Shown here in pieces: positions 23,092-62,173 of a stretch of DNA of 64,000 nt. Origin of the DNA: Sphingobium sp. 66-54 (GTDB lineage: Bacteria > Pseudomonadota > Alphaproteobacteria > Sphingomonadales > Sphingomonadaceae). The translations under genes and the position numbers were made by a program. The stretch spans positions 6,446 through 70,445 of the forward strand of contig MKWI01000019.1 of the NCBI GenBank assembly GCA_001899715.1. Direction: 5' to 3'. Numbering within the stretch: position 1 is the first letter of the stretch; the number at the start of each line of letters is the position of its first letter. The notes below the pieces were generated by a model. That model was not told where the DNA came from. It ran no database searches and saw nothing but the letters and a program-made list of their open reading frames with translations.

Positions 23092-23118
23092 TTGACAGGC
23101 CATTGCACGTAGCATAGC
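23092..23118 (+). promoter_or_regulatory. Host tRNA-Arg promoter (now upstream of attL)
   Basis: TTGACAGGC-N12-CATAGC, ending 32 nt before the tRNA 5' fragment. Confidence 0.7.
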
Positions 23119-23150
23119 CAAACTGCCGCCTTGCGGCCGCCGCAAGGCAC

Positions 23151-23189
23151 GCGCCCGTTGCTCAGCCGGATAGAGCATCAGATTCCTAA
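23151..23189 (+). pseudogene. attL: 5' half of tRNA-Arg(CCT)
   Basis: 38/39 identical to 62097-62135; stops after the anticodon loop (TTCCTAA). Confidence 0.93.
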
Positions 23190-23241
23190 GCGTGGATCTT
23201 CCGCTGATTTTCTGTTTAAAATCAACTGCAAGTCTATCTGA

Positions 23242-23260
23242 TGTGCCCGGCGGTGTGCCC
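23242..23260. repeat. Integrase arm-type sites (left)
   Basis: TGTGCCC at 23242 and 23254; the same motif recurs near attR. Confidence 0.65.
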
Positions 23261-23262
23261 AG

Positions 23263-24297
23263 CTATGCGCGTTTCCGCTTTTTCTTTGGCGTGAGCAGCG
23301 CTGAAACGCGGTCGAAAGCGGTTGTCTGGCCGATAGGTTTCACGTGCGCGTAGCGCATCGTGACGCTGACACTGCTATGAGCGAGGGCCTCGCAGATATC
23401 GGCCAGATCGGCACCGTTCTGGCGCGCCCAGCTACCAAAGGTATGGCGCAGATCGTGGAAGCGAAAGTCCACCATTTTCGCATCCTTTAGGGCGGCGGCC
23501 CAGCGCCGGCGAAAATTGGTGGTGTCAAAGACAGGCCCGGTGCGCCCATCGGCGGGCGTGCGAGCCAGCGCGGCTCGCAGCGGGGCGCCAAAGCGTGCGA
23601 TGATAGGCTTGCGCCCTTTACTGCGCGGTATGGTGATGGTGCCGCCGGCAAGGTCGACCTGATGCCATTTCATCGCAAGGATGTTGCCGCGCCGCAGGCC
23701 CGTGGTGACGGCAGTGAGGATGATCGGCCGCAGCGATGCATGGGCGGCGGTCATCAGGCGCTCAAACTCTTCGGCGGCGGCGAAGCGCACGCGGTGCTCC
23801 GGCTCCGGGACGCGCAGGCGCTTGAAGGCGAGGGCGGGAAAGGGCTGACCGTGCACGTCGCGCATGTGGTTGAGCGCGGCCTGGAGATAGGCGAGATCGC
23901 GATTGACTGTCTGCGCGGCCACAGGCCGGCCGGGCCTGTCATCGAGCGGGATATTCCCGCCGCGCCTCCGAGCCCGAAAATCCAGTATCATCGCGTTGGT
24001 GATGTCCATCACCAAAGTGTCGGCCCCGAACACTTCGGTCATACGTTCTAGCTGGCGAAATATCTGGTCGCCGCTTTCAGTGTGTTTCGCGTGGTCGTTC
24101 CAATAGGCCCCGAAGCAATCGCGGACGCGCCAGCCTTCGCGCGGTGGGCCGGACTTGCTTAGTCGGAGATATATCTCGGCTTCGGCGATGCGGGCCGCGC
24201 GTTCTTCCGTCGCGCCCGTGCTTCCTCGAAATCGACGAGTCCCGATGGTGATTGAATACCACCAGTAGGGTGACTTTGCGCGGCGATAGAGTGGCAT
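23263..24297 (-). CDS. int: Phage tyrosine integrase
   Basis: TTGLRRG, K, FHDLRHTFGSW, AHSSVSVTMRY catalytic residues; adjacent to attL. Confidence 0.95.
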   Translation of the reverse strand: MPLYRRAKSPYWWYSITIGTRRFRGSTGATEERAARIAEAEIYLRLSKSGPPREGWRVRDCFGAYWNDHAKHTESGDQIFRQLERMTEVFGADTLVMDITNAMILDFRARRRGGNIPLDDRPGRPVAAQTVNRDLAYLQAALNHMRDVHGQPFPALAFKRLRVPEPEHRVRFAAAEEFERLMTAAHASLRPIILTAVTTGLRRGNILAMKWHQVDLAGGTITIPRSKGRKPIIARFGAPLRAALARTPADGRTGPVFDTTNFRRRWAAALKDAKMVDFRFHDLRHTFGSWARQNGADLADICEALAHSSVSVTMRYAHVKPIGQTTAFDRVSALLTPKKKRKRA

Positions 24298-24470
24298 TGA
24301 CGGCGGCTTTCGATAAGGCGGCGAAGGTCCGCCAGATCATAGAGCGGCTTTCGACCGATCCGAACATACGGCAGCTCACCGTCAGCGCGCAACTTGCGCA
24401 GGAAGCGGGGGCTACAGCGGAGCGTTCGCGCCGCTTCGCTTTCAGTCAGAAGTTTGACCGGCTCGCTCAT
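24159..24470 (-). CDS. xis: Excisionase-like HTH protein
   Basis: LLTESEAARTLRCS..LPYVRIGRKPLYD MerR-like HTH; overlaps the int start. Confidence 0.8.
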   Translation of the reverse strand: MSEPVKLLTESEAARTLRCSPRFLRKLRADGELPYVRIGRKPLYDLADLRRLIESRRQCHSIAAQSHPTGGIQSPSGLVDFEEARARRKNARPASPKPRYISD

Positions 24471-25156
24471 GTCTCAATGTCGCGCGGCGGGATCCAGTAG
24501 ATCGGAGCGAAGGGCTGGCCGCGATCGTCAACGTGGGGTCGCCGGCGCTTGTCCCACAGCACCCACATGTAATCGATCTTGCCGCGCGCATATGCCTTGT
24601 CGCCGAGCGCCTCGATCTGGTCGCCGGGCGGCATCGAGGGGCGCTCGCACAGGATCCACACGCCCGCCGGCGTCAGCTCGCTGAACAGGCGATAGCGGCC
24701 TTGGCTGGCGAGCCATTTGAGCGGGAGAAGCGTGGCGACCTGATGGGTTGCAATCTCCAGTGCCCGGCGGGCGAAGCGTTCTGCAAGACCAAAGGCCATT
24801 TGCCCATTCTGGTAAGAGAAGGGTGGATTGCAGATGATCGACAAATCCCCGCCGCCTTCGAGCAAGCATCGCTGATTGCCAAGGAAATCATGCGCGCCGA
24901 GGAAGTGCGGCGCGCCGCGATCGAACATATCCATGCCGAATGCGGCGATGCCCCGGCCGCGTAACGCGCGGACGATGTTGCCTTGGCCGCAGCAGGGATC
25001 GAGCACCGTGACATCGTGGTCTATCGGCGCGGAATCGAGCAGCCGTTCGGTCACCCATTCCTGCTCGACATACCAATCCCAGGGATGGCGTTTGACCTTC
25101 TTGCCAGCGCGACGGCGGCGCGATTGCGAAACGCCGGTGGAGAGTTCGCCGCTCAT
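24467..25156 (-). CDS. Amino (N6A/N4C) DNA methyltransferase-like protein
   Basis: DPCCGQG (motif I) and NPPF (motif IV). Confidence 0.75.
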   Translation of the reverse strand: MSGELSTGVSQSRRRRAGKKVKRHPWDWYVEQEWVTERLLDSAPIDHDVTVLDPCCGQGNIVRALRGRGIAAFGMDMFDRGAPHFLGAHDFLGNQRCLLEGGGDLSIICNPPFSYQNGQMAFGLAERFARRALEIATHQVATLLPLKWLASQGRYRLFSELTPAGVWILCERPSMPPGDQIEALGDKAYARGKIDYMWVLWDKRRRPHVDDRGQPFAPIYWIPPRDIET

Positions 25157-25653
25157 AGCCCGACCCCTTCCGGCGTGGGCCAGTTCCACAAGCCTTGCTT
25201 TCCGCGCATGGGGATCGGTTCCGGCCATCGCTCGATGTCGAGCATCGGCCAGCCCCAGTTGGCATGGTCATCCCGGTCGCTGTCGTTGGCACGCGGCACG
25301 CCGAATTGCTCGGCGACGGCTGTGCCGATCACCGGCTCGCCCACTACGGCGGTGCCGATGCCGGCGGCCATCGGGAGTTCACCCTCAAGCGCGCGATTGA
25401 GCACCGGGATCGCGCGTTCCGGAATGAGGCAAGTCTCTGCGGCGGCCCGCGCAATATCGTCCGATCTGTCCCGTAAGGCCAAGACCACCAGAAGATCATT
25501 GACTTCATCCCGGTCGATCCTCCGCGCGGCTGCGTGGATCACGATGCGCTGGCCAATCAGCGAGCGAGGAACGCGCCACCCGCGAAATTCGTAGGGCTTC
25601 GCGCCTGCAACGATGAGCGACGCCCACGGCTGCCAGATGGTGAGCGTCTTCAT
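25153..25653 (-). CDS. ASCH domain protein
   Basis: LTIWQPWASLIVAGAKPYEFRGW, IVIHAA, P.PMRGKQGLW. Confidence 0.85.
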   Translation of the reverse strand: MKTLTIWQPWASLIVAGAKPYEFRGWRVPRSLIGQRIVIHAAARRIDRDEVNDLLVVLALRDRSDDIARAAAETCLIPERAIPVLNRALEGELPMAAGIGTAVVGEPVIGTAVAEQFGVPRANDSDRDDHANWGWPMLDIERWPEPIPMRGKQGLWNWPTPEGVGL

Positions 25654-26468
25654 GCCGCCAACCTTTCCATATCCGTGAGAAGCTGCTCGCCCCACTGTTT
25701 GGCCATCGCGGCTGCGAGGCCGGGAAAGGTTTCGCTGCGCCGGCGTGCACGATCCGGACCGGGCGGTTCGCGATGCACGCGGCTCCATGCTTTATGTTCG
25801 GCTGTCCCCGGCCGAGGCGGCGTGAGCCTGTTGGTTGGGTGCAGATCGGGCAGGCCGATCAATTCCAACCCTGTCGCCTTGAAATATGGATCGCCGAACC
25901 ACCATGGCTGGACGAACTGGGTCCGGCCGCGCCGCGTCATCTCGATCGCATAGCGATGCATGACCGGGTTTTCGATCGCGCGGCGCTGGATCTGGCGGGC
26001 GTCGCGAAGTGTGCGATAGAAGTCTGCGGCCTCGCCCAGTTCGGCCCAGCGCTGGGGATCTGGCCCATTTACCTTCTTCCCGCCGATATAGAGCCATTTC
26101 ACGCCGGAGTTGCAGAGGATCGTGCAGGGCGGGTGCATCACGGCGAGTAAGTCCCAGCCACCATCGAGATGGTTGCGAACATCATCGCGGATATGGCGGT
26201 TACTTCCATCGTCTGCCGGTTCGGTGTCACATGACCATGCGTCAAAGCCGCGCGCGATAAACGCCCGCCGAACAACGCCGCTACGTTCGCAGCGCCGGGG
26301 TTCGCCGGCGGTGAGCAGGTCCCAATCCTGCTCGGCCTCATCCATCGAGGCGCAGGCGCGGCCGTGCATGCCGCACAGGATGCATTCGGCGCGGAAAGCG
26401 AGCGAGCCTGTTTTCTGGTCCTTTTCGATCATGAACGCGGGCAGATGGTCGCAGGGGCGGTCACTCAT
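25650..26468 (-). CDS. Phage C5-cytosine methyltransferase-like protein with Cys-rich N-terminal domain
   Basis: CERSGVVRRAF..WSCD, HPPC catalytic motif, IENP, QPWWFG, RSETFPG. Confidence 0.7.
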   Translation of the reverse strand: MSDRPCDHLPAFMIEKDQKTGSLAFRAECILCGMHGRACASMDEAEQDWDLLTAGEPRRCERSGVVRRAFIARGFDAWSCDTEPADDGSNRHIRDDVRNHLDGGWDLLAVMHPPCTILCNSGVKWLYIGGKKVNGPDPQRWAELGEAADFYRTLRDARQIQRRAIENPVMHRYAIEMTRRGRTQFVQPWWFGDPYFKATGLELIGLPDLHPTNRLTPPRPGTAEHKAWSRVHREPPGPDRARRRSETFPGLAAAMAKQWGEQLLTDMERLAA

Positions 26469-26688
26469 GGCCGATCTCCTTAACTTCGAGGATAAGGGCG
26501 CCGTGGAAGGCCGTTGCTCGTTTGCCTTTCGACCGGAGCGCTTTTTGGCCGAGCCGCTTGAGCAATTCGTCGATGTCGAGAGAGACGCCGATCAGGCACG
26601 GCACGCCGACATTTATGATCTCATGGGGTCCAATCTGGCGCGGGACCATGATATCCGCACGGAAGCCGTCTCGGAGTGTCCGCCCCAT
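26461..26688 (-). CDS. Phage hypothetical protein, 75 aa
   Basis: MGRTLRDGFRADIM..KEIGHE; overlaps both neighbours (translational coupling). Confidence 0.65.
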   Translation of the reverse strand: MGRTLRDGFRADIMVPRQIGPHEIINVGVPCLIGVSLDIDELLKRLGQKALRSKGKRATAFHGALILEVKEIGHE

Positions 26689-26948
26689 CACTTCTCTCCA
26701 TAGCCCATGGCGGCGAGCGCCTTGGCCACCAGGTGCCAGACATGCAGATCGAGGCGGCGGTGTCCGGTGACGCTGCCGGTGCGCTGTGGCCGGCCCTTGT
26801 CGAGCTGCGCGGCCGATCGGCCATGGAGCGTGCGGCACGAATAATTGCCGACGCGCTCGGTGCCGCCCTCGTTGCAGATGTGCATGCGGGCCAGTTCGGA
26901 TTTCTCGCCAGTGACGGCGGACCATAGTTCTACGCGGATGACGATCAT
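26688..26948 (-). CDS. Phage hypothetical protein, 86 aa
   Basis: AAGAAGG RBS; coupled to the downstream gene. Confidence 0.75.
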   Translation of the reverse strand: MIVIRVELWSAVTGEKSELARMHICNEGGTERVGNYSCRTLHGRSAAQLDKGRPQRTGSVTGHRRLDLHVWHLVAKALAAMGYGEK

Positions 26949-26989
26949 AGTTGGTGACCTTCTTGCGGATGAGGGGATGTCGGGCGGGA

Positions 26990-27559
26990 CTAGAACGGTA
27001 TGCCGTCGCCATCTGCCGGCGAGGGGCTCGGCGCCGGAAGTGCGGTCGCTGGCAGGTTAGCGGCGACGCTAGGAGGAAGGCCGTAGATGCTGGTGGGCGC
27101 CCTCTTGAACGCGGTGAACGCGCTGCAAGGTGTGAGCTGGTAAATGGACTGTCCGCCGATCATAACCGGAGCGAGCAGCTCGCCCTGGAAGATCGGTTCG
27201 ATCTGGGCGAACTTGGTGCCGAACCGCTCGACCTCGGACAGACGGCCCACCAGTGTGCGGTGTCCCATGACTTCGACGATGGCATAATCGCCCTCGGGAA
27301 GCGCTTCCTCGACGGTAGCGTTGAGCGCAGGCAGATCCAGATCAGTGAAGGCGATGACCTGCGCGGCCCGGATGCGCTCGACCTCCTGGATGGCGTTCAG
27401 CGAGCTGTTCGTAAGGTGCAGAGCGCCGTCGATCAGATGATCGTGCTCGGGCTCCCAATCGTCGACGATCGATTCACAGCCAAAAGCGGCGGCAATGAGA
27501 TGTTTATTGCTGGTCTTCCCACAGGCCATGGGTCCGTGGACGATGACGGTATTTGCCAT
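26990..27559 (-). CDS. Phage protein with N-terminal P-loop
   Basis: GPMACGKT; AAGGAAG RBS before ATG 27559. Confidence 0.7.
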   Translation of the reverse strand: MANTVIVHGPMACGKTSNKHLIAAAFGCESIVDDWEPEHDHLIDGALHLTNSSLNAIQEVERIRAAQVIAFTDLDLPALNATVEEALPEGDYAIVEVMGHRTLVGRLSEVERFGTKFAQIEPIFQGELLAPVMIGGQSIYQLTPCSAFTAFKRAPTSIYGLPPSVAANLPATALPAPSPSPADGDGIPF

Positions 27560-27603
27560 TTCAGCTTCCTTTGCTTGTTGTTGAAGGGGGCGGGGCGGGG
27601 CTT

Positions 27604-28227
27604 TCACGCGGCCCATCCGTCGCTCTGGCCGGTGGTTTCGGCGTAGGCGCCGCGTGGGGCATCCTCGATCGGTACGAAGCGCTCGCGATGGCGGGCATAG
27701 GATTCGCGGAAGGTTTGCCGTTCGGCCTCGGTCAGATCGGCGGGGCGATAGCGCTTGTGGTCGAGTTCCTCGGGCCACCATCGGCGGGCCTGCACCCAAT
27801 AGAAAAAATGGGCAGCCTCGAAGCGTTCAAGCTGGTGGCGGAGAGCGATGGCCGGGCGCTCGCCATCCGCGATGGCCTGCGGATAATAGCGCCGGCGCAG
27901 CGTGATTTCGCGCCGTAGCTCCGCCACGATCTCCGCCCAGGTGAAGCGCGCCAGGCGCTCATCGGCTTTCGATCGCAGCTCCTGCCAATAGCGCATGTCC
28001 GGCGAGGCAAGATGCGTGTCCGCATTGATATCGGCATGGACGGCAGCCAGCACGTCGATGCGCCATTCGGCCTGCGCCGTGCTCATCTTGCCGTTGCCGA
28101 CGCGGCGCGGGTAGCTATCCCGCCGCAGGTGCAGTTCGCGGGCCAGTTCCTCGACAATCGCGCGGAGCGGGATGGTGAGCGGATCGGCGCTATCGACCGA
28201 CATGATGGGGTGGAAGGGCGCGCTCAT
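27604..28227 (-). CDS. Phage hypothetical protein with internal duplication
   Basis: Two copies of EL.RE..LRR..YP. Confidence 0.7.
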   Translation of the reverse strand: MSAPFHPIMSVDSADPLTIPLRAIVEELARELHLRRDSYPRRVGNGKMSTAQAEWRIDVLAAVHADINADTHLASPDMRYWQELRSKADERLARFTWAEIVAELRREITLRRRYYPQAIADGERPAIALRHQLERFEAAHFFYWVQARRWWPEELDHKRYRPADLTEAERQTFRESYARHRERFVPIEDAPRGAYAETTGQSDGWAA

Positions 28228-28868
28228 TGCACCGTCTCCTGGGCGAGCACGGTGCGGCGGCCGGTGTGATCGGGCGCGGAGACGACGCCTTCGCGCTCCA
28301 TGCGCTCGATCAGGCGGGCAGCGCTGTTGTAGCCGATGGCCAATTGGCGCTGGAGCCAGCTGGTGGATGCCTTGCCATGCTCTCGGACGAGCAGCGCGGC
28401 CTCGGTATAATCCGGCTCGGGCTCCGCCGCCTCGCAGTTGGCGAAACGCTGTTCGGGGTCTTCCCGGCCGGCGCCGTCGACGCCCATGCCAAGGGCGTCC
28501 TGGTATGTTTCCAGCAAGCTCTCGAATTCGCGGAGCGAGTGCCCGTCCATGCGCCGCCGCTTGACGATCTCGCGCATCACCTTGGCGTCATAGCCGGTGG
28601 CTTTGGCCTCGGCGTAGACATCCTTGATATCGTCGGAAATGCCGCGCTTTTCTTCTTCGAGACGCTCGACACGCTCGATGAGCAGGCGCAGCCGATCGGC
28701 GGCGGAATCGCCGGTGGCGCGGGCTGCCGGCGTACTCTTTCTCGCGCAATCCGGGCAGACGAGGAAGGTGGCGTTGGTGAGGGTGGATGCGTGGTTCTCC
28801 CAGCCCTCGGGCAGCGCATCGGGCGAGCCGTGGGCGGTGCGATCGCAGCGGGCGCAGACGAGGCTCAT
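28224..28868 (-). CDS. Zn-ribbon-GapR(DUF2312)-FtsK-gamma fusion protein
   Basis: CARC..CPDC; RLRLLIERVERLEEEK..DIKDVYAEAK..GYDAKVMREIVK (GapR); ASTSWLQRQLAIGYNSAARLIERMEREGVVS (FtsK gamma). Confidence 0.85.
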   Translation of the reverse strand: MSLVCARCDRTAHGSPDALPEGWENHASTLTNATFLVCPDCARKSTPAARATGDSAADRLRLLIERVERLEEEKRGISDDIKDVYAEAKATGYDAKVMREIVKRRRMDGHSLREFESLLETYQDALGMGVDGAGREDPEQRFANCEAAEPEPDYTEAALLVREHGKASTSWLQRQLAIGYNSAARLIERMEREGVVSAPDHTGRRTVLAQETVQ

Positions 28869-29092
28869 TGGCTCTCTCCCGCGTCGGGCATGTAGCGCTC
28901 CCCACAAAAGGGGCAGAATGTGTGTGCGAATATTTTGGGCTTACCGCTCCGGCTTTCTCTCCGGCCGTTGTCGCGGCGCTGGAGGTTTGTGCAGGTTTCG
29001 GCGGTCAGCGTGCCGCCCCGATACATGATGGCGATTTCAAGCTTGTGGTCAGGCAGCTTTGCTTCGATCTCCGTGATGCAGTTGCAGCTCAT
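28865..29092 (-). CDS. Small Cys-rich phage protein
   Basis: MSCNC..FCPFCG; coupled to neighbours. Confidence 0.75.
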   Translation of the reverse strand: MSCNCITEIEAKLPDHKLEIAIMYRGGTLTAETCTNLQRRDNGRRESRSGKPKIFAHTFCPFCGERYMPDAGESQ

Positions 29093-29490
29093 GGCCGATC
29101 TCCCAGCGTTCCGGGGTTGCGGGCGAGGGCGGCGTAGCGGCGCAACTCATCGGCGAGAGCATCGGCCTGATCGGGCTCGATCAGGAAGGTGAGCGGCTGA
29201 TGCTGGGTGGTGACGCGCAGCGGGTTGAGCGCGACCAGCCATCTGAGGCCATCCCGTGCGGCATGGACGCTGATCGGCGGTTCGATGGGTTGACCGGCCT
29301 CTAGCCCGCCCTTCGGCTTGGTGGGTGGCAAATGGCCAAATGGTGCGGCGGCAACGCAATCTGGGCACCGGAGCGCACCGTCCTTGAAATACTTCCAGCC
29401 CAGTGGAATCGCGCGGGCGTGCTGGCCGATATGTTCTCGCCCGCATCGCGTGCAGACGAATGTGCAGGCGTCGATTATGGCCTTGCTCAT
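29089..29490 (-). CDS. Zn-ribbon phage hypothetical protein
   Basis: CTRC..IPLGW..CPDC. Confidence 0.7.
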   Translation of the reverse strand: MSKAIIDACTFVCTRCGREHIGQHARAIPLGWKYFKDGALRCPDCVAAAPFGHLPPTKPKGGLEAGQPIEPPISVHAARDGLRWLVALNPLRVTTQHQPLTFLIEPDQADALADELRRYAALARNPGTLGDRP

Positions 29491-29639
29491 AGCTGGATCA
29501 CTCCGTTGTAAACGAGGGTTAGGGCGGCGCCGATCATGGCGACGAAGGCCAGCACGCCGGCGGTTTCGGCAAGGCCGGGAATTTCGTGGCGGTGGCGGCA
29601 GAACAGGCAGGCGCATCGCCCGCGCGCATGGTCACGCAT
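29487..29639 (-). CDS. 50-aa Cys/His plus TM peptide (not in ORF track)
   Basis: MRDHARGRCACLFCRHRHEIPGLAETAGVLAFVAMIGAALTLVYNGVIQL; overlaps both neighbours. Confidence 0.6.
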   Translation of the reverse strand: MRDHARGRCACLFCRHRHEIPGLAETAGVLAFVAMIGAALTLVYNGVIQL

Positions 29640-53659: not shown

Positions 53660-53665
53660 GCGGGG

Positions 53666-53884
53666 TCAGTCCCAGAGATGCACAATGGCGCGGGCCGGCG
53701 CCTCCGGGGTGAGCAGCAGGGGCAGGGAGACGGGATGCCCCTCCGGCAGCACCGGGCCAAGCGCGGCGATATCGCGGTTGAGATCGAGCACCTGCTCGAC
53801 TGTGCCGGAGCCAGCGCCAAGCACGCGCCACACCAGCGCGTCGACCGTTTCGCCCTGGAGCGCGGTGGCGGTGAAGGTGGTCAT
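53666..53884 (-). CDS. X: Tail protein X
   Basis: ALQGETVDAL.WR..G..EQVL..N..A..LPEG..V.LP..V.LWD. Confidence 0.92.
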   Translation of the reverse strand: MTTFTATALQGETVDALVWRVLGAGSGTVEQVLDLNRDIAALGPVLPEGHPVSLPLLLTPEAPARAIVHLWD

Positions 53885-54381
53885 CAGATCAACTCCACCG
53901 CGGTACGGCGCTGGCCGAGGATGGCACGGATGGCGTGGACGCCGTTGCGGCGATGATCGTCCGGCGTCATCGCCTGATGCTCGATCTGGCTTACGCCGGT
54001 GCCGGTGGCCGTCACGTCGCGGTGCGTCTCGATCAGGTCGGCGGCGGCGAAGGCATGCACTGCGCGGCGCCACAGGATGGCGAGGCGGCTCTCACTGGCT
54101 GTCTCGCCCGCGCCATGTGTGATCGCCTCGGCCGGCACGTCCGCCAGCGTGACATGGCCTTCCGCCTCGCGCACGGCGCGCCAGTCCGCCAGATTGTCCG
54201 CCGTGATGATCGCCGCGCCGAGCAGCGCCTCAACAACGCGCGGGTGCGGGATATCCTGATTGCCGATGCGCATCGCATCGCGGAAGCGGTTGATGTCGAT
54301 CGACGGCCAGAAGCTGCCCACCGAAACGATGGCGCCGGCGGGGCTAGCGGGCGAGGGGGGCGAGGCGATAAAACCGGACAT
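53884..54381 (-). CDS. L: Head completion protein L
   Basis: FWP.ID...FR..MRI, RDV.AT..G, AI..ILG..R..VELI. Confidence 0.9.
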   Translation of the reverse strand: MSGFIASPPSPASPAGAIVSVGSFWPSIDINRFRDAMRIGNQDIPHPRVVEALLGAAIITADNLADWRAVREAEGHVTLADVPAEAITHGAGETASESRLAILWRRAVHAFAAADLIETHRDVTATGTGVSQIEHQAMTPDDHRRNGVHAIRAILGQRRTAVELI

Positions 54382-54482
54382 GGGTCCTCCGCTCAAAAAT
54401 GCGGGGGGTGGGGATCAGAGCCGGACGGTTGCGCGAGCGCGTGTTCGGTTCGTCACCGCCCCCCGGCGCCGGGGGCGCAAGC

Positions 54483-55226
54483 TCAGTCGTTCGCAGCGCG
54501 GACCTTGGCCTCTAGCTGCTCGATATCCTTTTTGACGCCGCATTTCTTATCGAGCTGCAGCGCGCGGCGGAAGGCGGCAAGCGCCTCAAGCTGGGCCGAT
54601 TCCCGGCCGCCAGCGGGCGCGCTCTCGGGGTGCTCGACAAGGCGGGCATAGGCCCGGCGCAGCGAGCGCCCGCGCGCCTTGAACAGCTTCGCCCGCACCT
54701 GGTCGGGCATGTCATGCTCGGCGGTGAGCGCGTTGGCCTGGTCGATGATGGCGAGCGAAAATTCATGCCCGTCGCGATCCATCGCCAGCGCGGCCTCGGC
54801 GACTTCCTCGGCGATCAGCGTGGCGGCCTGGCGCTGCATGCGCTGGGGCATGGCGAGGCCGAAGCGCAGCACATGCGCTGCGATCTCAAGGCCGGCCGCG
54901 AAATCGCCGATATCGAAGCGCCAGATCATCATGGTCGCCACGATCTCGTCCTGCACCGCCTTGCCGCTCTGCGCGGAGGCGTCCAGCGTGGCATCGACGT
55001 GATGATCGTAGCTGACAATCATCTCGCGCTTGAGCGCGATCTTGCCCTCGACCGATTGCACCTCGCGCAGCCGCGCCAGATCCTTGCCCAGCTCGGCGAG
55101 CAGCAGCTCATAGGCGCTCGCCTCCGGTCCATCCTTGGGGCGGGCGGCGGCGACCCCCTCGGGCGCTTTGGCGGCGGCCTGCCGGGCAAGGATTTTCTGG
55201 CGATGGCGGGCGGCGGGGGAAAGCAT
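54483..55226 (-). CDS. M: Terminase endonuclease subunit M
   Basis: SPA.RH, QDEI....MIWRFD.G, DMPDQVRAKL.K, GVKKDI. Confidence 0.92.
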   Translation of the reverse strand: MLSPAARHRQKILARQAAAKAPEGVAAARPKDGPEASAYELLLAELGKDLARLREVQSVEGKIALKREMIVSYDHHVDATLDASAQSGKAVQDEIVATMMIWRFDIGDFAAGLEIAAHVLRFGLAMPQRMQRQAATLIAEEVAEAALAMDRDGHEFSLAIIDQANALTAEHDMPDQVRAKLFKARGRSLRRAYARLVEHPESAPAGGRESAQLEALAAFRRALQLDKKCGVKKDIEQLEAKVRAAND

Positions 55227-55309
55227 GCGGATCGTCCTAATGGATACGGGAGATTGGGGAGATCAGGCTGGCGAACCGGCCCGATCTCCCCGCTTCGTCG
55301 CGGTGGTTA

Positions 55310-56338
55310 TCAGGGGATCTCTTCCTCGGGCACGAACGGCTCGATATTCTCGATGAGGCAGGCGAAATCATAATCCTCGATGACGTACGCGTCGTTCGAA
55401 GACTGATAATCCTCGATCCGGTCGCGCTCCGGCACATCCTTGATGTGGCGGCGGCGCGCGCCTTCCTGCTCGTAAATCGAGAGGTTGTCGTAGCGGGTGA
55501 TGAGGATCGAGCCCGCCGGGACGTAAGGCACGCGTTCGGCGGGCAGGCCGCCCAGGCGCTTGGTGGAGAGGATCACGTCCCGCGCGAGCTGCTCGGTCGG
55601 GTCGATCGACTGGTTGACGAGCGGAAAATATTTGTCATGCAGCAGGTCGCGGCTGACGATCGCCACCAGCTCGGTATCCTCACTTGCCCAGGAGGGCAGG
55701 AGCTGCGCCACGGCATCATAGACCAGCGCGTCGAGGGTCGCATAGTCGCCGCCCACGCCATAGGTCACCTTGCCGGCCTCGGCGCCCTCGTCCATCACAT
55801 GCGAGGGGCGATCGGTCCGCAGCTTCTGCAGCCAGCCAATATTGACATCCTGCCGGAGCTGGTTGGTCGCCGCATCGCTGGTGGCCGCGTGCGAGGTGCC
55901 GTTGAAGCCGACAAGGATCTTGTCGAGCGCCTGACGGCGGGTGATGAGGTTCTGGATACGCGTCTCGAAATCGGCGAATTTCGCCCACGCGTCCAGCAAC
56001 GCATAGCGCAGGTGGGTGTCCGAGTTGTTCTGGAAGCACTCGTAGGTCACCTTGTCCATGCCGGAGGGCGACGTGGTCTTGCGCGTGCCTTCGCCGGACG
56101 TGTCCGTGGTGGACACCAGCGGCGAACCGACCGAAAGGCCCAGAACCTCGCCCTTCATTTCGAGCACCGGGACGATGTTGATCCGCTGCAGGAACGCGCT
56201 CGATTCCTGCATCTTGTTGATGAGCGTCTGCTGGACGGACGGGTCCACCGAAAATTTGAGGGTGGCGTCGGAGACGCCGTTGAGCAGGGCGATCTGCTCG
56301 GCGAAGGCGTTGAAAAGCTCGCGTGTATCGTTACGCAT
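55310..56338 (-). CDS. N: Major capsid protein N (P2 family)
   Basis: FSVDPSVQQTL, LDAWAKF, QDVNIGWLQK, Y.S.NDAYVIEDY. Confidence 0.96.
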   Translation of the reverse strand: MRNDTRELFNAFAEQIALLNGVSDATLKFSVDPSVQQTLINKMQESSAFLQRINIVPVLEMKGEVLGLSVGSPLVSTTDTSGEGTRKTTSPSGMDKVTYECFQNNSDTHLRYALLDAWAKFADFETRIQNLITRRQALDKILVGFNGTSHAATSDAATNQLRQDVNIGWLQKLRTDRPSHVMDEGAEAGKVTYGVGGDYATLDALVYDAVAQLLPSWASEDTELVAIVSRDLLHDKYFPLVNQSIDPTEQLARDVILSTKRLGGLPAERVPYVPAGSILITRYDNLSIYEQEGARRRHIKDVPERDRIEDYQSSNDAYVIEDYDFACLIENIEPFVPEEEIP

Positions 56339-56382
56339 GATTGGCTCCGGTCAGATGAGGCGCGCGCGGAAATTGGGGTGGA

Positions 56383-57270
56383 TCAGCACTCGGCGCGGGC
56401 GCGACCGTTGCCGCCGCTGGCGGCGGGGCGTGACATATGGCCGGTGGCCGGCGTCTTCTCGATCTTCGCCTGCAGGGCGGAGAAATCCTCCGCCATCTTG
56501 GCGATGCGGGTATCCTGCGCGGCAAAGCCCTTCTGGATACCCTCGGTCAGCTTGGTGATTTGCTCACCGAAACCGGAAACGAAGGCCGCGATCTGCGCAT
56601 TGGCGTTGGCCGAAAGGTCGGCGCCGCTGCCGCCGGTGGGTGGCGTGCCGAGAACCGGCTGCTGCTGTTGCGGTTGCTGCGCAGGCTGCTGCGCCGGCGG
56701 CGCCTTGCCGAATTCGGCAAAGAAGCTCTTGATGCCCGCCAGCACGCCGCCGGCGATATCGGAGGCGGGCGTGCCGGCCTCGAAGCTAAGGGCGATCGGC
56801 TCTTCCTCGACCTGCAGGAGATTGTCCTTCCGCTTCTCGTCCCGGCTGAATTTCAGCACTTCGGTGCCGAGCGAAGCGGGGGAATCGGTGAAGGCGAGGC
56901 CGACCAGATAGGCTTTGCCGGTCTGCGCGAAATTGGGGTGGATCTCGACGCTCGAATAGAGCTTCTGCCCGGCCTCGTTATAGGCCCTGGCCTGATCCGT
57001 CACGTCGAGCTGGGCGAACAGCGCCAGCTTCTTCTCGGTCTTGCCGCCAATCGCAAGGTCGATTTCCTCGGCCTTGACCGCGTCGACCGTCCCCCAGGCG
57101 TTGAAAGGCGCCTCGGGCGAGAAACCGCGCAGATGCTCGCAGTTGATCCGCGCGGCATAGGTGGCGGTGTTGTAGCTGTCCGCCATCTGCTGGATCTGGT
57201 CGCGGGTGATTTCCCGCCCGTCGACGGTGGCGCCCTCTACGGCAACGCGGAAATACTGGGTTTTCGCCAT
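56383..57270 (-). CDS. O: Capsid scaffolding protein O
   Basis: FRVAVEGATVDGR.I, INCEH, YLVGLAFTDSPASLGTE. Confidence 0.95.
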   Translation of the reverse strand: MAKTQYFRVAVEGATVDGREITRDQIQQMADSYNTATYAARINCEHLRGFSPEAPFNAWGTVDAVKAEEIDLAIGGKTEKKLALFAQLDVTDQARAYNEAGQKLYSSVEIHPNFAQTGKAYLVGLAFTDSPASLGTEVLKFSRDEKRKDNLLQVEEEPIALSFEAGTPASDIAGGVLAGIKSFFAEFGKAPPAQQPAQQPQQQQPVLGTPPTGGSGADLSANANAQIAAFVSGFGEQITKLTEGIQKGFAAQDTRIAKMAEDFSALQAKIEKTPATGHMSRPAASGGNGRARAEC

Positions 57271-57346
57271 GTTGAGGCTCCTTGGCGGTCGGCGTGAATG
57301 TGCCGCCATTCGCCGTTCCCGCCGGGGCAAAAACAACCGCCTCTCA

Positions 57347-57367
57347 TTGTGAGAGCGCCTATCACAA
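57347..57367. promoter_or_regulatory. Late-activator box 3 (bidirectional: O and P)
   Basis: TTGTGA-N9-TCACAA between the divergent O and P genes. Confidence 0.87.
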
Positions 57368-57415
57368 ATGTTGCACGGCGAAGCAGGGCGGCGGCTGTCG
57401 CATCGTCCGGCGGCC

Positions 57416-59233
57416 ATGGACGCCCCCGTCATCCCTGTGCCCGAGGCAATTCCTTACGACGCCAGGCGCATCGCCCGCGCTTATTACTGGCGGGGCTGGG
57501 ACGTGACGAACATCGCCGGGGCGCTGAACCTCAAGCGCTCGACGGTGCAGAGCTGGAAGGACCGGGACGGGTGGGACAATGATCCGGTCATTCGCCGGGT
57601 CGAAGATAGCTGCGAGATGCGGCTCAATCAGCTCATCTTCAAAGAGGACAAGACCGGCAAGGATTTCAAGGAAATCGACCTGCTCGGCCGCCAGATCGAG
57701 CGCATGGCGCGAGTGCGCCGCTATGGCGAACCGGGCGGGCACGAGGGCGACCTCAACGAGAAGGTGGCGAACCGCAACGCCGGGCCGAAAAAGCCGAAAA
57801 CGCCGCCGAACACCATTACCCGTGAGGATTTCGCCAAGATCAAGGCGGCGTTTCTCGATTGTCTGTTCGGGCATCAGGAGACGTGGTGGGCGAATATCAG
57901 CCGGCGCACGCGGTTCCTGCTCAAGAGCCGCCAGATCGGCGCGACCTTCTACTTCGCGCGCGAAGCTTTCATCCGCGCGATGGAGACCGGCAACAACCAG
58001 ATCTTCATTTCGGCAAGCCGGGCGCAGGCCAATATCTTCCGGCAATATATCGTCGAGTTCGTTTTCGAGCAGACGGGCAAGATGCTCAAGGGCGATCCGC
58101 TGATCGTCCATCGCGGGTGGGAGGATGAGGGCGGCGAGCCGGCGCAGCCCGTCACCTTCTATTTTCTCGGCACGAACTACCGCACGGCGCAGGGCTATCA
58201 CGGCGACGTGTATCTGGACGAAGTGTTCTGGATCTACGGTTTCGAGCAGATCAACAAGGTCGCATCGGCCATCGCCACCCAGGCGCGCTACCACAAAACC
58301 TATTTCTCGACGCCGTCCACCGTGGCGCACGAGGCCTATGCCATGTGGACAGGCGAGCGCTACAACCGCAAGCGCGAGCGCAAGGAGCAGATCAAGCTCG
58401 ACACTAGCCATAGCGCCATCGCCATGGGGTCGCTCGGCCCCGATCGCATCTGGCGCCACATCGTCACGCTGGACGACGCCATTGCCGGCGGCTTCGACCT
58501 GATCGACCGGGACGAACTGGAGCTGGAATATTCGCAGGACGAGTTTGACAATCTCTTCCTCTGCCAGTTCGTCGACGACAGCCAGTCGAGCTTTCCGCTG
58601 GCGCTGCTGCGCCCCTGCATGGTCGATAGCTGGGATGTCTGGAAGGACTTCCACCCCTACGACCTCATGCCGTTCGGCGAGGGCGAAGTGTGGATCGGTT
58701 ATGATCCGGCCGAGAGCGCGGACGGCGACAACGCCAGTTGCGTCGTCGTGGCGCCACCGGCGGGCGGCAAGGGCAAGTTCCGCGTGCTGGAGAAATTCCA
58801 GTGGAAGGGCAAGGATTTCGAGGCGCAAGCCGAGGAGATCAAGAAGCTGACCCGCAAATATCGCGTGACGGAAATCGCGATCGACAGCACGGGTATGGGC
58901 ACGGCCGTGCATCAGCTCGTGGTCAAATTCTTCCCGATGGCGCGGCGCATCGACTATTCGCCGCTGGTCAAGACCCAGATGGTGCTCAAGGCAAAGAACG
59001 TCTTCGCCAAGCGCCGCATCGAGTTTGACGCGGGGTGGAGCGATCTGGCGGCGGCGCTGATGTCGATCCATCCGCAGCTCACCAAGGGACAGAAGCAACT
59101 CACCTATGTCGCGCGGCGCAGCGAGGCGACCGGCCACGGCGATCTCGCCTGGGCGCTGCTGCATGCCCTGTATTGCGAGCCGATGGACGGCCTGATCACG
59201 CACGGAAAATCCAGAATGGAGATATTGGGATGA
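57416..59233 (+). CDS. P: Terminase ATPase subunit P
   Basis: N-terminal HTH, LKSRQIGAT Walker A, YLDE, GYDP, H.DLAWA. Confidence 0.96.
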   Translation: MDAPVIPVPEAIPYDARRIARAYYWRGWDVTNIAGALNLKRSTVQSWKDRDGWDNDPVIRRVEDSCEMRLNQLIFKEDKTGKDFKEIDLLGRQIERMARVRRYGEPGGHEGDLNEKVANRNAGPKKPKTPPNTITREDFAKIKAAFLDCLFGHQETWWANISRRTRFLLKSRQIGATFYFAREAFIRAMETGNNQIFISASRAQANIFRQYIVEFVFEQTGKMLKGDPLIVHRGWEDEGGEPAQPVTFYFLGTNYRTAQGYHGDVYLDEVFWIYGFEQINKVASAIATQARYHKTYFSTPSTVAHEAYAMWTGERYNRKRERKEQIKLDTSHSAIAMGSLGPDRIWRHIVTLDDAIAGGFDLIDRDELELEYSQDEFDNLFLCQFVDDSQSSFPLALLRPCMVDSWDVWKDFHPYDLMPFGEGEVWIGYDPAESADGDNASCVVVAPPAGGKGKFRVLEKFQWKGKDFEAQAEEIKKLTRKYRVTEIAIDSTGMGTAVHQLVVKFFPMARRIDYSPLVKTQMVLKAKNVFAKRRIEFDAGWSDLAAALMSIHPQLTKGQKQLTYVARRSEATGHGDLAWALLHALYCEPMDGLITHGKSRMEILG

Positions 59234-60276
59234 GCGGCAACAACCTCGACGTGAAAACGGCGGGCGGCCTCCAGATGTTCAGCTTCGGCGATGCGGAGAG
59301 CGTGCTCAACCGGCGCGAGCTGCTCGCCCATGTTGAATGCATGTGGACCGGCCGTTGGTATGAGCCGCCGGTGCCGCTCAAGGCGCTGGCGCGCTGCTAC
59401 CGGATCTCGCCGCACCATTCGAGCGCGATCGTGGTCAAGCGCAACCTGCTGCTCAAGCATTTTCGGCCGTCCAAATGGCTCAATCGCACCGATTTCGGCA
59501 AGTTCGTGCTGGATTATCTGGTGATGGGCAATGCCTATCTGGAGCGGGTCGATAATATCATCGGCCGGCCGATGACGCTCAAGCACAGCCTCTCGCTCTA
59601 TACGCGGCGGGGGAAGGGGGAAGGGGAGTTCTACTTCCTGCCCAACGGCACCGCCGGGGCTTGGGGTGCGCTCGGCCAGGCGCATCCGTTTGCGGAGGGC
59701 AGTGTCTGCCATCTTGCCGAGCCGGACGTGGCGCAGGAGATTTATGGCCTGCCGGAGTATCTCTCGGCCCTGCAATCGGCCTTTCTGAACGAAAATGCGA
59801 CGCTGTTCCGCCGGCGCTATTATCTGAACGGCGCGCATGCCGGCTTCGTCTTCTACCTCAACGAGCCGAGCATGGACCCCAATGACGTGGAGAGCATCCG
59901 TGAGGCACTGCGCGGCGCGCGCGGGCCGGGGAATTTTCGCAATCTGTTCATCAATGCGCCAGGCGGCAAGAAGGATGGCGTGCAGATCATCCCGATCAGC
60001 GAGGTGGCCGCAAAGGATGAGTTCCTCGGCATCAAGGGCACCACGCGCGATGATATCCTCGCGGCGCACCGTGTTCCGCCCCAGCTCATCGGCGTGATTC
60101 CGCAGAACAACGGTGGCTTCGGTGACGTTGGCAAGGCCAATAACGTGTTTTTCGGCAACGAGATCGTGCCGATCCAGATGCGCATGCTCGAAATCAACGA
60201 CTGGCTCGGCGCGGAGGCCGTGGCGTTCGATGCATATCAGCCCTCCGCCGGCGCGGCGGCCAGCAACACCCCGTAA
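59230..60276 (+). CDS. Q: Portal protein Q
   Basis: FSFGD.E, WYEPP, YGLPEY, FRRRYY.NGAHAG, AHRVPP.L.G. Confidence 0.96.
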   Translation: MSGNNLDVKTAGGLQMFSFGDAESVLNRRELLAHVECMWTGRWYEPPVPLKALARCYRISPHHSSAIVVKRNLLLKHFRPSKWLNRTDFGKFVLDYLVMGNAYLERVDNIIGRPMTLKHSLSLYTRRGKGEGEFYFLPNGTAGAWGALGQAHPFAEGSVCHLAEPDVAQEIYGLPEYLSALQSAFLNENATLFRRRYYLNGAHAGFVFYLNEPSMDPNDVESIREALRGARGPGNFRNLFINAPGGKKDGVQIIPISEVAAKDEFLGIKGTTRDDILAAHRVPPQLIGVIPQNNGGFGDVGKANNVFFGNEIVPIQMRMLEINDWLGAEAVAFDAYQPSAGAAASNTP

Positions 60277-60420
60277 CCAGCGGGGGAGCGGGCGCTGCAA
60301 CGCCCGCCCCAGGCAACATCTCCTTGTCTCAAGCCATGAGGGTGCATGCGCCCTCGACTCGCCCGCTCACCCTGCAGGGCGGCGAGAACGTCTAGTGAAC
60401 GAAAGCAAGGAGTCGAGTCT

Positions 60421-61215
60421 GTGTTATTGGAACCCGTGGCACCCGTTCGCCCTATCGCCGCATGGATCGGCGGTAAGCGCAAGCTGGCCAAGCGCCTGGT
60501 CGCGCGCATCAACGCGATCGAGCATGACAGCTATGTCGAGCCGTTTGTGGGCATGGGCGGCGTCTTCCTGCGCCGCGATCATCGCCCGCCCTGCGAGGTC
60601 ATCAACGACTGGAGCGAGGATGTGTCGACGCTCTTTCGCGTGATCCAGCGCCATTTCGTTGCCTTCACCGAAATGGTCCGCTTCCAGATCAGTTCACGCG
60701 CGAATTTCGAGAAGCTGGTGGCGACGGATCCGCGCACCCTGACCGATCTGGAACGCTCGGCGCGCTTCCTCTACCTGCAGCGCCTCGCCTTCGGCGGGAT
60801 GGTCTCGGTAAGGCGGTTCGGAACATCGCCGGGGGTGGGGGCGCGCTTTGATGTGACCAAGGTCGCTCCGATGATCGAAGCGCTTCATGAGCGCCTGGCC
60901 GGCGTCACTATTGAGCGGCTGCCATGGCAGTCACTCATTGCGCGATGGGATCGGCCCGGCACACTTTTCTATCTCGATCCACCCTATCATGGCTCCGAGC
61001 GAGATTATGGCGCGGACATGTTCGGCCGCGACCAGTTCGCGGAGATGGCGGCTCAACTCGCCAGCATCCGTGGCCGCTTCATCATGAGCATCAACGACCA
61101 TCCCGAGATCCGCGAGCTGTTCGCGCGATTCTCGATCGAGGAAGCCGAAACCAGTTACACGGTCGGCGGCCAGGCCAAGGCCAAGACTGTCCGCGAGCTG
61201 ATTATCACGGGCTGA
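60421..61215 (+). CDS. D12-class DNA adenine methylase (Dam-like)
   Basis: WIGGK, YVEPFVGMGGVF, FYLDPPY; GTG start after AAGGAG. Confidence 0.9.
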   Translation: MLLEPVAPVRPIAAWIGGKRKLAKRLVARINAIEHDSYVEPFVGMGGVFLRRDHRPPCEVINDWSEDVSTLFRVIQRHFVAFTEMVRFQISSRANFEKLVATDPRTLTDLERSARFLYLQRLAFGGMVSVRRFGTSPGVGARFDVTKVAPMIEALHERLAGVTIERLPWQSLIARWDRPGTLFYLDPPYHGSERDYGADMFGRDQFAEMAAQLASIRGRFIMSINDHPEIRELFARFSIEEAETSYTVGGQAKAKTVRELIITG

Positions 61216-61384
61216 CACAGCCCCGCAGGGCGGCCGCAGAGCGCGCGGCCGCCCGCCATCCCCCCCGCGCATCATCGCATCGCCCAGACGCGCCCCAGCG
61301 GGGCGCCAGCGCCGCCCTGCGCCCATCGCCAACCCCCAGCGCCCACCCGCCGGGGGCCTCGCCACGTCGACCCCGCGCGCCGCG

Positions 61385-61403
61385 CTTGGCTCCCCCCCTC
61401 GCC
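61385..61403 (-). other. Candidate cos site
   Basis: Minus strand GGCGAGGGGGGGAGCCAAG resembles the P2 cohesive end GGCGAGGCGGGGAAAGCAC (13/19, P2 sequence from memory); lies downstream of portal. Confidence 0.55.
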
Positions 61404-61580
61404 TGCACGCTTACCCTGTCGCATTTGACGCATCGGCCCACTTTCGATGCGGCCAGCGTGCCCGCCCCATAGACCTTGTTTCGAACGGGTGGCGCTGTGA
61501 CGCGGTCAAACGCGGGTCGCTGCTATTCAGCGCGGCGCGGAATTTTGCGCGGACGCATTGATGCGAAGGGGAGGGGCATC

Positions 61581-61836
61581 GGGGAAAACCTAATATTCCT
61601 GATCTCTATCAGCTACTTATACCAACCGACTGATAACGCTGAAAAAAAATGTTAGGTTGCGGACCTAATATCTTCTCACATTTCGAGGCCGGTTTTCTCA
61701 TCTCACTGATATTAAAGAGATTTTCTAATCATAAATATTAGATTGAATGAACCTAATCTGGTGAGATTTAGGTGAGAAAAATGTTAGGTCAGAAATGGCG
61801 GAAATCCGCCAATGTTAGGAATATTAGGTTTTTCCC
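61581..61836. repeat. AT-rich iteron array, candidate replication origin
   Basis: 8 exact CCTAA/TTAGG cores, AATGTTAGG x3, 19/20 terminal inverted repeat. Confidence 0.55.
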
Positions 61837-61970
61837 ACGCTCTCCCTGAACATTTTTCGGGTAGGGCGATGCGTGTAACAATGAGGTCTATTTCACTCTC
61901 ATGTTGGTGAGACTTCATTGCCAGTGACTATGCGAGCGGGAGAAACTGCAGGTGGCGGGCGAGGGGAGAG

Positions 61971-62020
61971 TGTGCCCGAAAGTGTGTCCTGACTGTGCCC
62001 GGATGTGCCTTTCCGTGCCG
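61971..62020. repeat. Integrase arm-type sites (right)
   Basis: TGTGCCC 61971, TGTGTCC 61983, TGTGCCC 61994, TGTGCCT 62004, CGTGCCG 62014. Confidence 0.65.
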
Positions 62021-62037
62021 CTTTGTTCCACTTTGCG

Positions 62038-62064
62038 TTGACAGGCTTAGGGCTCTAACATAGC
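62038..62064 (+). promoter_or_regulatory. Phage-supplied tRNA promoter
   Basis: TTGACAGGC-N12-CATAGC, 32 nt before the tRNA, same geometry as 23092-23118. Confidence 0.72.
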
Positions 62065-62096
62065 GGGATCGACGGAAATCAGCAGATTTCGAATGC

Positions 62097-62173
62097 GCGC
62101 CCGTAGCTCAGCCGGATAGAGCATCAGATTCCTAATCTGGGGGCCACAGGTTCGAATCCTGTCGGGCGCACCA
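62097..62173 (+). tRNA. tRNA-Arg(CCT), includes the attR core
   Basis: Full cloverleaf: GCGCCCG/CGGGCGC acceptor, TAGCTCAG..GGATAGAGC D arm, anticodon CCT, GGTTCGAATCC T arm, encoded CCA. Confidence 0.97.

Follow-up and report, generated by a model that had tools for sequence, protein, structure and literature searches.

In the canonical elements that integrate into transfer RNA (tRNA) genes, the element carries the 3' part of the gene beside its integrase gene (int) and the host keeps the promoter and the 5' part, as set out in those sections of PMC1635311 that treat them and that also summarise the sublocation classes of tRNA-integrating elements from Williams (2002, NAR 30:866). Integration that uses the 5'-distal part of a tRNA gene is rare; the passages of PMC6563490 that deal with it cite Zhao and Williams (2002) as the bacterial precedent, which agrees with the remark in a first-pass annotation of the present locus that such a case had been reported. 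The DNA analysed here is a 64-kb chromosome segment (hereafter the window) with a guanine-plus-cytosine (GC) content of about 65%, from a Sphingobium-like member of the Sphingomonadaceae, which carries a temperate P2-like prophage in the gene for tRNA-Arg(CCT). The analysis makes it very probable that this phage was integrated 'backwards' by its tyrosine integrase and that it supplies a promoter-like element, a leader and the 5' half to the host tRNA gene. To the known mode of integration are added a conserved promoter-bearing module in the phage attachment site (attP), four tRNA targets, a whole-tRNA intermediate and fossils in which a promoter has been replaced.

The divided tRNA gene and its empty site

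A tRNA-Arg(CCT) gene was the sole tRNA called in the window by ARAGORN, and a repeat search identified a direct repeat of 40 nucleotides (nt), 98% identical, which brackets the prophage (Table 1). The repeat is made up of one base followed by tRNA positions 1-39, its 3' edge is the last base of the anticodon loop, and its single mismatch (T23159 against A62105) falls on tRNA position 9. The truncated copy adjoins int and lies behind the host promoter, and the intact tRNA stands at the far end behind phage DNA; this is the arrangement that the first-pass annotation had described, and its coordinates are borne out by both searches. The repeat that bounds the element is the 5' portion of the tRNA and not the 3' portion, which is the reversed, 5'-restoring orientation. 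Phage DNA straight after the anticodon loop (23190 onward) is non-tRNA sequence, likewise in 12 independent relatives, and the tRNA 3' part that a canonical element carries beside int is lacking here, with no tRNA called near int by ARAGORN. An Rfam search of the region of the left attachment site (attL) gave no real match.

The unoccupied state of the locus, in which the host promoter is followed by an uninterrupted tRNA, was recognised in three sequences, aided by the DUF1178 gene, a conserved neighbour of tRNA-Arg(CCT) across the Sphingomonadaceae. The 1.3-kb Logan metagenome contig L040 represents the empty bacterial attachment site (attB) of the species of the window: it encodes an identical DUF1178 protein, followed by the promoter, the palindromic leader and an unbroken tRNA with A at position 9, which continues beyond the anticodon loop as TCTGGGGG. 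The 5' half of the tRNA in the right attachment site (attR) is identical to that of L040. In L002 and L003, two relatives without the prophage, a TTGAC promoter-like element comes after the stop codon of DUF1178 and ahead of the whole tRNA, and this order identifies the element at 23092 as host sequence. Prophage-free relatives had been expected in the first-pass annotation to show the host promoter followed by a whole tRNA, as L002 and L003 do and as L040 does up to its end inside the tRNA, and the promoter at 62038 is not host sequence in them.

Four lysogen contigs (L036, L037, L039 and L041) do not differ from the window, T9 included, and six further similar places were found. T9 is present in the attL stub of every lysogen contig recovered, and A9 in the empty site and in attR. 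Most simply, T9 is a mutation in a fragment that is now functionless, perhaps by plain drift. After an excision through the anticodon loop, the tRNA gene would be left with U9 instead of A9. The altered stub is reminiscent of the 'damage' to tRNA fragments discussed for satellites in a part of PMC10111431.

Attachment sites and integrase relatives

The integrase matches PF00589 with 87.8 bits and the Int_N family PF24624 with 30.6 bits, both above the cut-offs, and the conserved HxxR and tyrosine motifs were seen in the alignment (HDLRHTF and MRYAHV), which identifies it as a tyrosine recombinase of the type with an arm-binding domain. The pattern TGTGCC-N6-TGTGCC occurs at only two places in the window, in the 23242 region and at 61971, which are the two ends of the prophage, so that by sequence arm-type repeats are present on both arms of attP, five on the P arm and two on the P' arm. 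Four of the P-arm repeats lie at -126, -114, -103 and -93 from tRNA +1, and in L031, L058, L046 and L052 the positions are the same within 1-3 nt; the TGTGCC pair between the tRNA half and int, or near-matches to it, is also found in the relatives examined. The conserved CCGCTTTGTTCC box that follows the P-arm repeats could be a site for an accessory protein or an UP-like element. A terminator-like hairpin with a T-run occurs at the matching place in the attP of L051 and L052, and none was called in L049.

Two relatives show what such an attP looks like outside a chromosome. L051 (a 41.9-kb contig) and L052 (40.4 kb) both have int in mid-contig with phage genes on both sides, a PAPS-reductase-like gene lying beyond attP in the former and a spanin and a GH19 endolysin in the latter. 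In both, the order is arm repeats, box, promoter, leader, the 5' half of tRNA-Thr(TGT), the hairpin with T-run, two arm repeats and int, and no complete tRNA is present in either. PP496355 (L035), a circular GenBank phage with an integrase 43% identical to that of the window, has an attP with the 5' half only of tRNA-Pro(TGG). A free-element attP with the 5' fragment and its upstream signals was seen in these three relatives, and the attP of the window phage is a reconstruction from attL and attR; the expectation that attP would contain the promoter and the tRNA 5' half is in this way upheld at the level of the family.

The matching right-hand ends were found in the viral contigs L031 and L033, in which AT-rich phage DNA is followed by an arm of the window type and a whole tRNA-Arg(CCT), and in L046, in which such an arm is fused to tRNA-Thr(TGT). 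The arm of L031 and L033 consists of four phased TGTGCC/TGTGAC repeats, CCGCTTTGTTCC, TTGAC, a 17-nt spacer, a TA-initiated hexamer and a 32-nt leader. The arm layout is constant in seven of the eight phage-borne copies, and the offsets of the arm repeats are fixed in five of those seven, at -127, -115, -104 and -94 to within 2 nt.

Integrase homologues were surveyed for orientation as the first-pass annotation had suggested, and 13 of the 14 informative ones carry the tRNA 5' half only, with four tRNA targets. Arg(CCT) is the target in the window, L034, L049 (Sphingobium sp. H39-3-25), L050 (Sphingopyxis sp. SE2), L053, L055 and L059; Thr(TGT) in L048 (Novosphingobium guangzhouense), L051 and L052; Arg(TCT) in L057; and Pro(TGG) in PP496355. 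The further attL cases are L034, L048, L049, L050, L053, L055, L057 and L059; a gene of the HTH_17 family occupies the position of the excisionase gene in L048, L049 and L057. Homologues L027-L030 were uninformative, their contigs ending 15-48 nt past int. The identity block in the homologues always ends 0-4 nt past the anticodon loop, which would place the crossover in or just before the loop, by analogy with those canonical integrases that form the anticodon-loop class; in the window it would lie in the loop, at the 3' edge of the block. The reverse mode is the rule across a clade of sphingomonad phage integrases, and the integration module is shared with unrelated phage bodies (L052, PP496355).

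The GenBank entry PP496355 is named 'Microcystis phage Mvi-Yong1342-1'. The region read has a GC content of 59% and an integrase module of sphingomonad type, the tRNA fragment is unannotated and a hypothetical coding sequence has been drawn across it; no publication on this phage was found in a literature search. The Microcystis label seems doubtful, and a heterotroph from the culture seems the more likely host.

The proposed mechanism begins with recombination by the tyrosine integrase between the host tRNA-Arg(CCT) gene and a phage attP, which would be ordered as five TGTGCC sites, the CCGCTTTGTTCC box, TTGACA-N17-TAGCGG, the 32-nt leader, tRNA positions 1-39, the terminator-like hairpin, two TGTGCC sites and int on the opposite strand. 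The Int_N domain would bind the TGTGCC repeats, and strand exchange would take place in the anticodon loop. In one product, attL, the promoter, leader and 5' half of the host gene would be stranded next to int as a dead remnant; in the other, attR, the phage promoter, leader and 5' half would be fused to the host 3' half as the only intact copy in the window. The TTGACA element is predicted to transcribe a pre-tRNA with a leader of about 25 nt, to be removed by RNase P. The hairpin and T-run would terminate transcription from the orphaned promoter ahead of int, which it would otherwise enter in antisense, and in the free phage would terminate that from the phage promoter. Given this displacement of the promoter, the anatomy implies that expression of the host tRNA would depend on phage DNA.

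Promoters, leaders and rival explanations

The motif TTGACAGGC-N12-CATAGC has exact copies in the 64 kb only at the two promoter-like elements, where 0.07 would be expected even with two mismatches allowed, and both stop 32 nt ahead of tRNA position 1; the first-pass annotation was right on both the number and the distance. The host element is equally placed after the DUF1178 stop in L001, L002, L003, L034, L049, L050, L053 and the empty site L040. Eight phage-borne upstream regions (including a fossil, see below) and eight host regions were compared by alignment on tRNA +1. In 15 of these 16 regions, TTGAC is followed, after a spacer of 17 nt, by a hexamer in which TA starts at position 1 or 2, the exception being PP496355 with TTGCGC at the -35 position and an 8-nt leader, and in seven of the eight phage or fossil copies TTGAC-N17-TA lies at a fixed distance from the tRNA. 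The pattern is similar to the sigma-70 consensus of alphaproteobacteria, CTTGAC-N17-CTATAT.

After the -10 hexamer, the leader measures 30-33 nt in seven of the eight phage copies, irrespective of the tRNA or the host, and 9-11 nt in native hosts, among which the species of the window alone has 30 nt. Its long leader is due to a 21-nt palindrome, which is specific to this host species, being present in L040 and absent from the other hosts with leaders of 9-11 nt; the palindrome was also considered as a dispersed repeat, which was rejected since it is unique in the window. The long phage leaders, the short native ones and the gain of the palindrome together show that the two copies came by their equal spacing of 32 nt separately and by chance, and not through preservation by the phage. 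Beyond the consensus, the two promoters of the window share AGGC and CA..C, bases that are not found in the family members TTGACGGCG, TTGACACAT and TTGACGGTG; they are probably shared by chance, or at most locally, and the resemblance of the host and phage copies appears to be mostly that of a common consensus.

The first-pass annotation had also reported a hairpin in both leaders. Both inverted repeats exist, and that of the host is strong. The phage-side repeat, GAAATC-AGCA-GATTTC, lies in a leader that folds at -5.7 kcal/mol, a value that is not significant against shuffled sequence (z -0.95 and -0.67); the GAAATC stem is absent from the minimum-energy fold. Phage leaders that fold better than shuffles are those of L058 (z -2.7) and of L051, L052 and L001 (about -1.8), and no significant fold was obtained for the leaders of the window phage, L031 and L046; the phage leader may yet have a structural role. 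The suggestion that the phage preserves the promoter spacing and leader structure of its host has to be given up, in view of the leader lengths and of the phage hairpin.

Several results weigh against a backward integration of this kind. The empty site is represented by a single 1.3-kb contig that ends inside the tRNA, and a longer one, sought in Joint Genome Institute metagenomes with the exact 55-nt pattern of host leader and whole tRNA, gave 0 matches. Scans for the attL/attP junctions, which would reveal the attP or an excision product of this phage, returned 0 matches in viral contigs and 0 in metagenomes. Of 24 sequencing runs, all available as Logan contigs, X1 and X2 resemble pure lysogens, with contigs that do not branch at the repeat and with no trace of attP or attB; X3 is ambiguous. 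Finally, neither promoter is called by a simple E. coli-type sigma-70 scan, but this was not counted against them, since the scan demands a -10 consensus unlike that of native sphingomonad tRNA promoters. The empty scans and unbranched runs, together with T9 in the stub of every lysogen contig recovered (the four contigs and six similar places), would also suit a resident prophage that has become fixed and no longer excises, the arrangement being a frozen scar. This is unlikely, though it deserves more weight than the other alternatives: the gene set looks complete, with intact int, excisionase and repressor genes and structural modules, the arm sites are intact on both arms and the empty site circulates in the same species. 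Such a loss would in any case bear on the present activity of the element and not on its arrival. That the arrival was of another kind, either a normal 3'-restoring integration with a later rearrangement or homologous recombination with a tRNA gene that the phage carried complete, is brought to mind by one clade member with a complete tRNA in its attP. It is highly improbable, given the non-tRNA sequence from 23190 in the window and at the same place in the 12 relatives, and given an empty site and attP sites that fit a simple one-step site-specific event.

Two further alternatives concern the promoter. The phage promoter and leader might be a look-alike, adapted to or copied from the tRNA-Arg promoter of this host, since all 15 of the 15 specified bases and the spacing are identical in this one host-phage pair, and in the tRNA-Thr group the left promoter of L048 and the phage promoter of L051 share the 16-mer CCCCGACATAGGCGAA. 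However, the leaders of 30-33 nt recur in the phage copies with both Arg and Thr targets and host leaders are short save in the palindrome species, the two 72-nt upstream regions of the window align poorly outside the motif (42/72, with gaps), the hairpin of the phage leader is not significant, and the fossil phage-type promoter of L001 (TTGACACAT...CTTAGC) is no copy of the L001 host promoter (TTGACAGGC...CATAGC); the left side of L048, with its long phage-type leader, may itself be a fossil. Imitation of the host is accordingly improbable. Somewhat less probable still is expression of the attR tRNA by read-through from the operon of the Dam methylase gene, which lies on the strand of the tRNA, with the TTGACA element serving only as protein-binding DNA of the P arm. 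The hexamer TAGCGG is indeed weak as a -10 element by E. coli standards, and the negative E. coli-type scan fits this explanation as well; but TTGAC, the 17-nt spacer and TA keep their distance from tRNA +1 in the phage copies despite diverging surroundings, native host tRNA genes are preceded by the same consensus, the upstream DNA in L031 and L033 is AT-rich and non-coding, and the fossil L001 keeps the module before its tRNA with no phage operon left. Backward integration by the tyrosine integrase, with a promoter-like element brought by the phage, remains by a wide measure the best account of the locus.

Origin, prophage contents and known systems

The clade member with a complete tRNA, IMGVR_UViG_3300048927_000415, is a whole prophage of 38.3 kb that has a complete copy of tRNA-Arg(CCT) at either end. 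On the left, promoter and 5' half come from the host and the 3' half from the phage; on the right, the arm, promoter, leader and 5' half come from the phage and the 3' half from the host. It follows that the attP of this phage contains the entire tRNA gene. Its integrase, which shares 65.5% identity with that of L049, has a nested position within the clade, and the sister phage L059, which resides in the same host species (the host side is 100% identical), is without the tRNA 3' half. On the simplest and most likely reading of these sequences, the clade would descend from a phage with a complete, self-promoted tRNA gene as attP, and most members would since have lost the 3' half. The two chimeric tRNAs of this prophage lie at L058 236-312 and L060 7631-7707. 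In the one that joins the phage 5' half (GCGCCCA) to the host 3' half (TGGGTGC), a G3:U70 pair arises in tRNA-Arg(CCU); G3:U70 is the main alanine identity element of tRNAs. An A7:C66 mismatch is found in the other.

L001, the closest genome, has retained the host promoter behind DUF1178, and no recognisable tRNA half comes after it; instead there are 1.4 kb of low-GC DNA with a PEP-CTERM-type open reading frame (ORF), a 72-nt stretch of which 53 positions are identical to the phage-borne promoter and leader of the window, and then the tRNA. L001 is a fossil, in which the tRNA would be permanently fed by phage-derived DNA, and the left side of L048 may be a second one, judging by its long phage-type leader and the 16-mer in common with L051. 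L001, a Sphingobium metagenome-assembled genome, has another integrase gene (8190 onward), which lies on the strand of the tRNA and starts about 130 nt past it. This is the usual site of 3'-side islands and suggests that this one tRNA gene has served as a target on either side. In L004, L006, L008, L009 and L011 (Sphingomonas, Rhizorhabdus), tRNA-Arg(CCT) stands by DUF1178 on the opposite strand, usually followed by tRNA-Gly(CCC), and the locus appears to have been inverted or rebuilt in these lineages.

A broader scenario can be offered only tentatively: that the reverse polarity arose from a whole-tRNA attP and was fixed by the loss of the 3' half, that decaying prophages repeatedly and permanently replace native tRNA promoters because the phage promoter module stays behind, and that a stub RNA is made. 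If so, the orphaned host promoter would produce a terminated RNA of leader and tRNA 5' half, possibly a functional one.

The prophage has the layout of a P2-like myovirus, with the major head protein and scaffold genes on one strand facing those of the large terminase and portal on the other, and with contractile-tail genes, as judged from PHROG matches and gene order. Its modules comprise two methyltransferases, primase, repressor, the tail module, a 1278-amino-acid cargo ORF, the head module, terminase, portal and a Dam methylase. Three DNA methyltransferase genes are present in all, two near int (24467-25228 and 25650-26468) and the Dam-type one near attR. The 1278-amino-acid ORF (46769-50605, + strand) lies between the baseplate and head modules, on the opposite strand, in a dip of GC content (0.57 at 48-50 kb); it had no match in Pfam, PHROGs or PADLOC and a sub-threshold hit only to the MXYO-CTERM family of NCBIfam, and is likely cargo of unknown function. 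Three tandem repeats of 22-26 nt (CAACCAAAGTT...) at 34410-34482 overlap the 5' end of the repressor gene and reach upstream of it, and two AT-rich 23-nt repeats lie about 1 kb beyond them, at 35379-35438; both sets look like operators of an immunity region. The tail-fibre gene (43377-44876) holds a 191-nt internal direct repeat, 88% identical (43687-43877 / 44116-44306). Codon supply was considered as an idea and dropped, the use of AGG being the same in host genes (1.8/1000) and phage genes (2.2/1000). Among the host flanks, the left-flank protein has its best genome match in a Sphingobium metagenome-assembled genome (79% identity), and an exact-protein look-up of the right-flank oxidoreductase matched no record.

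Table 1. Features of the prophage, its attachment sites and the host flanks in the 64-kb window
Feature	Position	Strand	Basis or remark
DUF1178 gene, host left flank	22581..23066	+	Pfam PF06676, E 1e-44; synteny with the tRNA in L001-L016
Host promoter-like element, orphaned: TTGACA, 17-nt spacer, TAGCCA (TTGACAGGC-N12-CATAGC)	23092..23118	+	conserved position after DUF1178 stop
21-nt perfect palindrome in host leader, GCCTTGCGG-CCG-CCGCAAGGC	23128..23148	+	-17 kcal/mol, z -3.1 and -3.9 against shuffles
attL identity block, displaced 5' half of tRNA-Arg(CCT), positions 1-39	23150..23189	+	T at position 9 (23159)
P2-like myovirus prophage body, about 38.9 kb	23190..62095	.	PHROG and Pfam matches
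Terminator-like hairpin and T-run in tRNA sense, start of P' arm	23192..23214	+	same place in attP of L051 and L052
Two TGTGCC direct repeats, candidate arm-type integrase sites of P' arm	23242..23259	+	repeat pattern
Tyrosine integrase with arm-binding N-terminal domain	23263..24297	-	PF00589 E 9e-25; PF24624 Int_N E 6e-7; phrog_1 E 2e-54
Excisionase-like small DNA-binding protein	24159..24470	-	phrog_66, E 1e-8
Primase	29632-32310		PHROG/Pfam
Repressor	34060-34464	-	PHROG/Pfam
Contractile-tail module	35932-46357		PHROG/Pfam
Tape measure	37324-39552		PHROG/Pfam
Tail sheath	40658-41776		PHROG/Pfam
Major head protein	55310-56338		PHROG/Pfam
Scaffold	56383-57432		PHROG/Pfam
Large terminase	57368-59233		PHROG/Pfam
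Portal	59035-60276		PHROG/Pfam
Dam methylase gene	60346-61215	+	Pfam
Five phased TGTGCC-type direct repeats, candidate arm-type sites of P arm	61971..62019	+	repeat pattern
Conserved box CCGCTTTGTTCC between arm sites and -35 element	62018..62029	+	identical in L031, L033, L046, L051, L052; near-identical in L058
Phage-borne promoter-like element: TTGACA, 17-nt spacer, TAGCGG	62038..62064	+	TTGAC-N17-TA conserved in phage copies
Phage-borne leader, 32 nt	62065..62096	+	weak inverted repeat 62075-62090
Chimeric intact tRNA-Arg(CCT): phage-derived 5' half 62097-62135, host 3' half 62136-62173	62097..62173	+	ARAGORN, repeat; attR identity block 62096-62135
GFO/IDH/MocA oxidoreductase, host right flank	62449..63540	+	Pfam

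Prophage finders and textbooks assume elements that carry the 3' end of the gene, as described in part of PMC1635311, and reversed elements are then given wrong boundaries or missed. The attP module provides a sequence signature with which further ones may be found, and the natural series of whole tRNA, 5' half only and fossil makes the origin of target-gene polarity testable. The locus would be a concrete case of chromosomal tRNA expression handed over to phage-derived regulatory DNA, sometimes permanently, and it is of relevance to the choice of integrases and attB sites in genome engineering.

With the canonical tRNA integrators the element has in common a tyrosine integrase, an identity block edged by the anticodon loop that restores the gene, and an int that adjoins attP; it differs in that the block extends from the loop to the 5' end, so that the element must carry a promoter. 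The bacterial precedent named at the outset, reportedly from Mesorhizobium loti, likewise recombines with the 5'-distal part of a tRNA gene and must bring the front end of the gene, whereas here a P2-like phage is found within a clade with four tRNA targets, in which the promoter module is conserved and an intermediate with a whole tRNA occurs. The 5'-distal integrators of another domain of life, as covered in a section of PMC6563490, use their targets with the same polarity but differ in the type of integrase and in the logic of the promoter. As in a lambda-type attP, there is an Int_N domain (PF24624) with predicted binding to phased direct repeats, of which the P arm has five and the P' arm two, but here the stretch of the P arm from the arm sites to the core also contains a promoter, a leader and half a tRNA gene. 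The likeness to P2-like phages (Peduoviridae), known from PHROG and Pfam matches, lies in a portal and large terminase divergent from the scaffold and capsid, and in the sheath, baseplate, tape measure and primase. P2 itself integrates at non-tRNA sites, whereas the integration module found here is common to the unrelated phage bodies of L052 and PP496355. The element thus belongs to a rare but known kind of integration, and what the analysis adds is the picture at the level of the clade.

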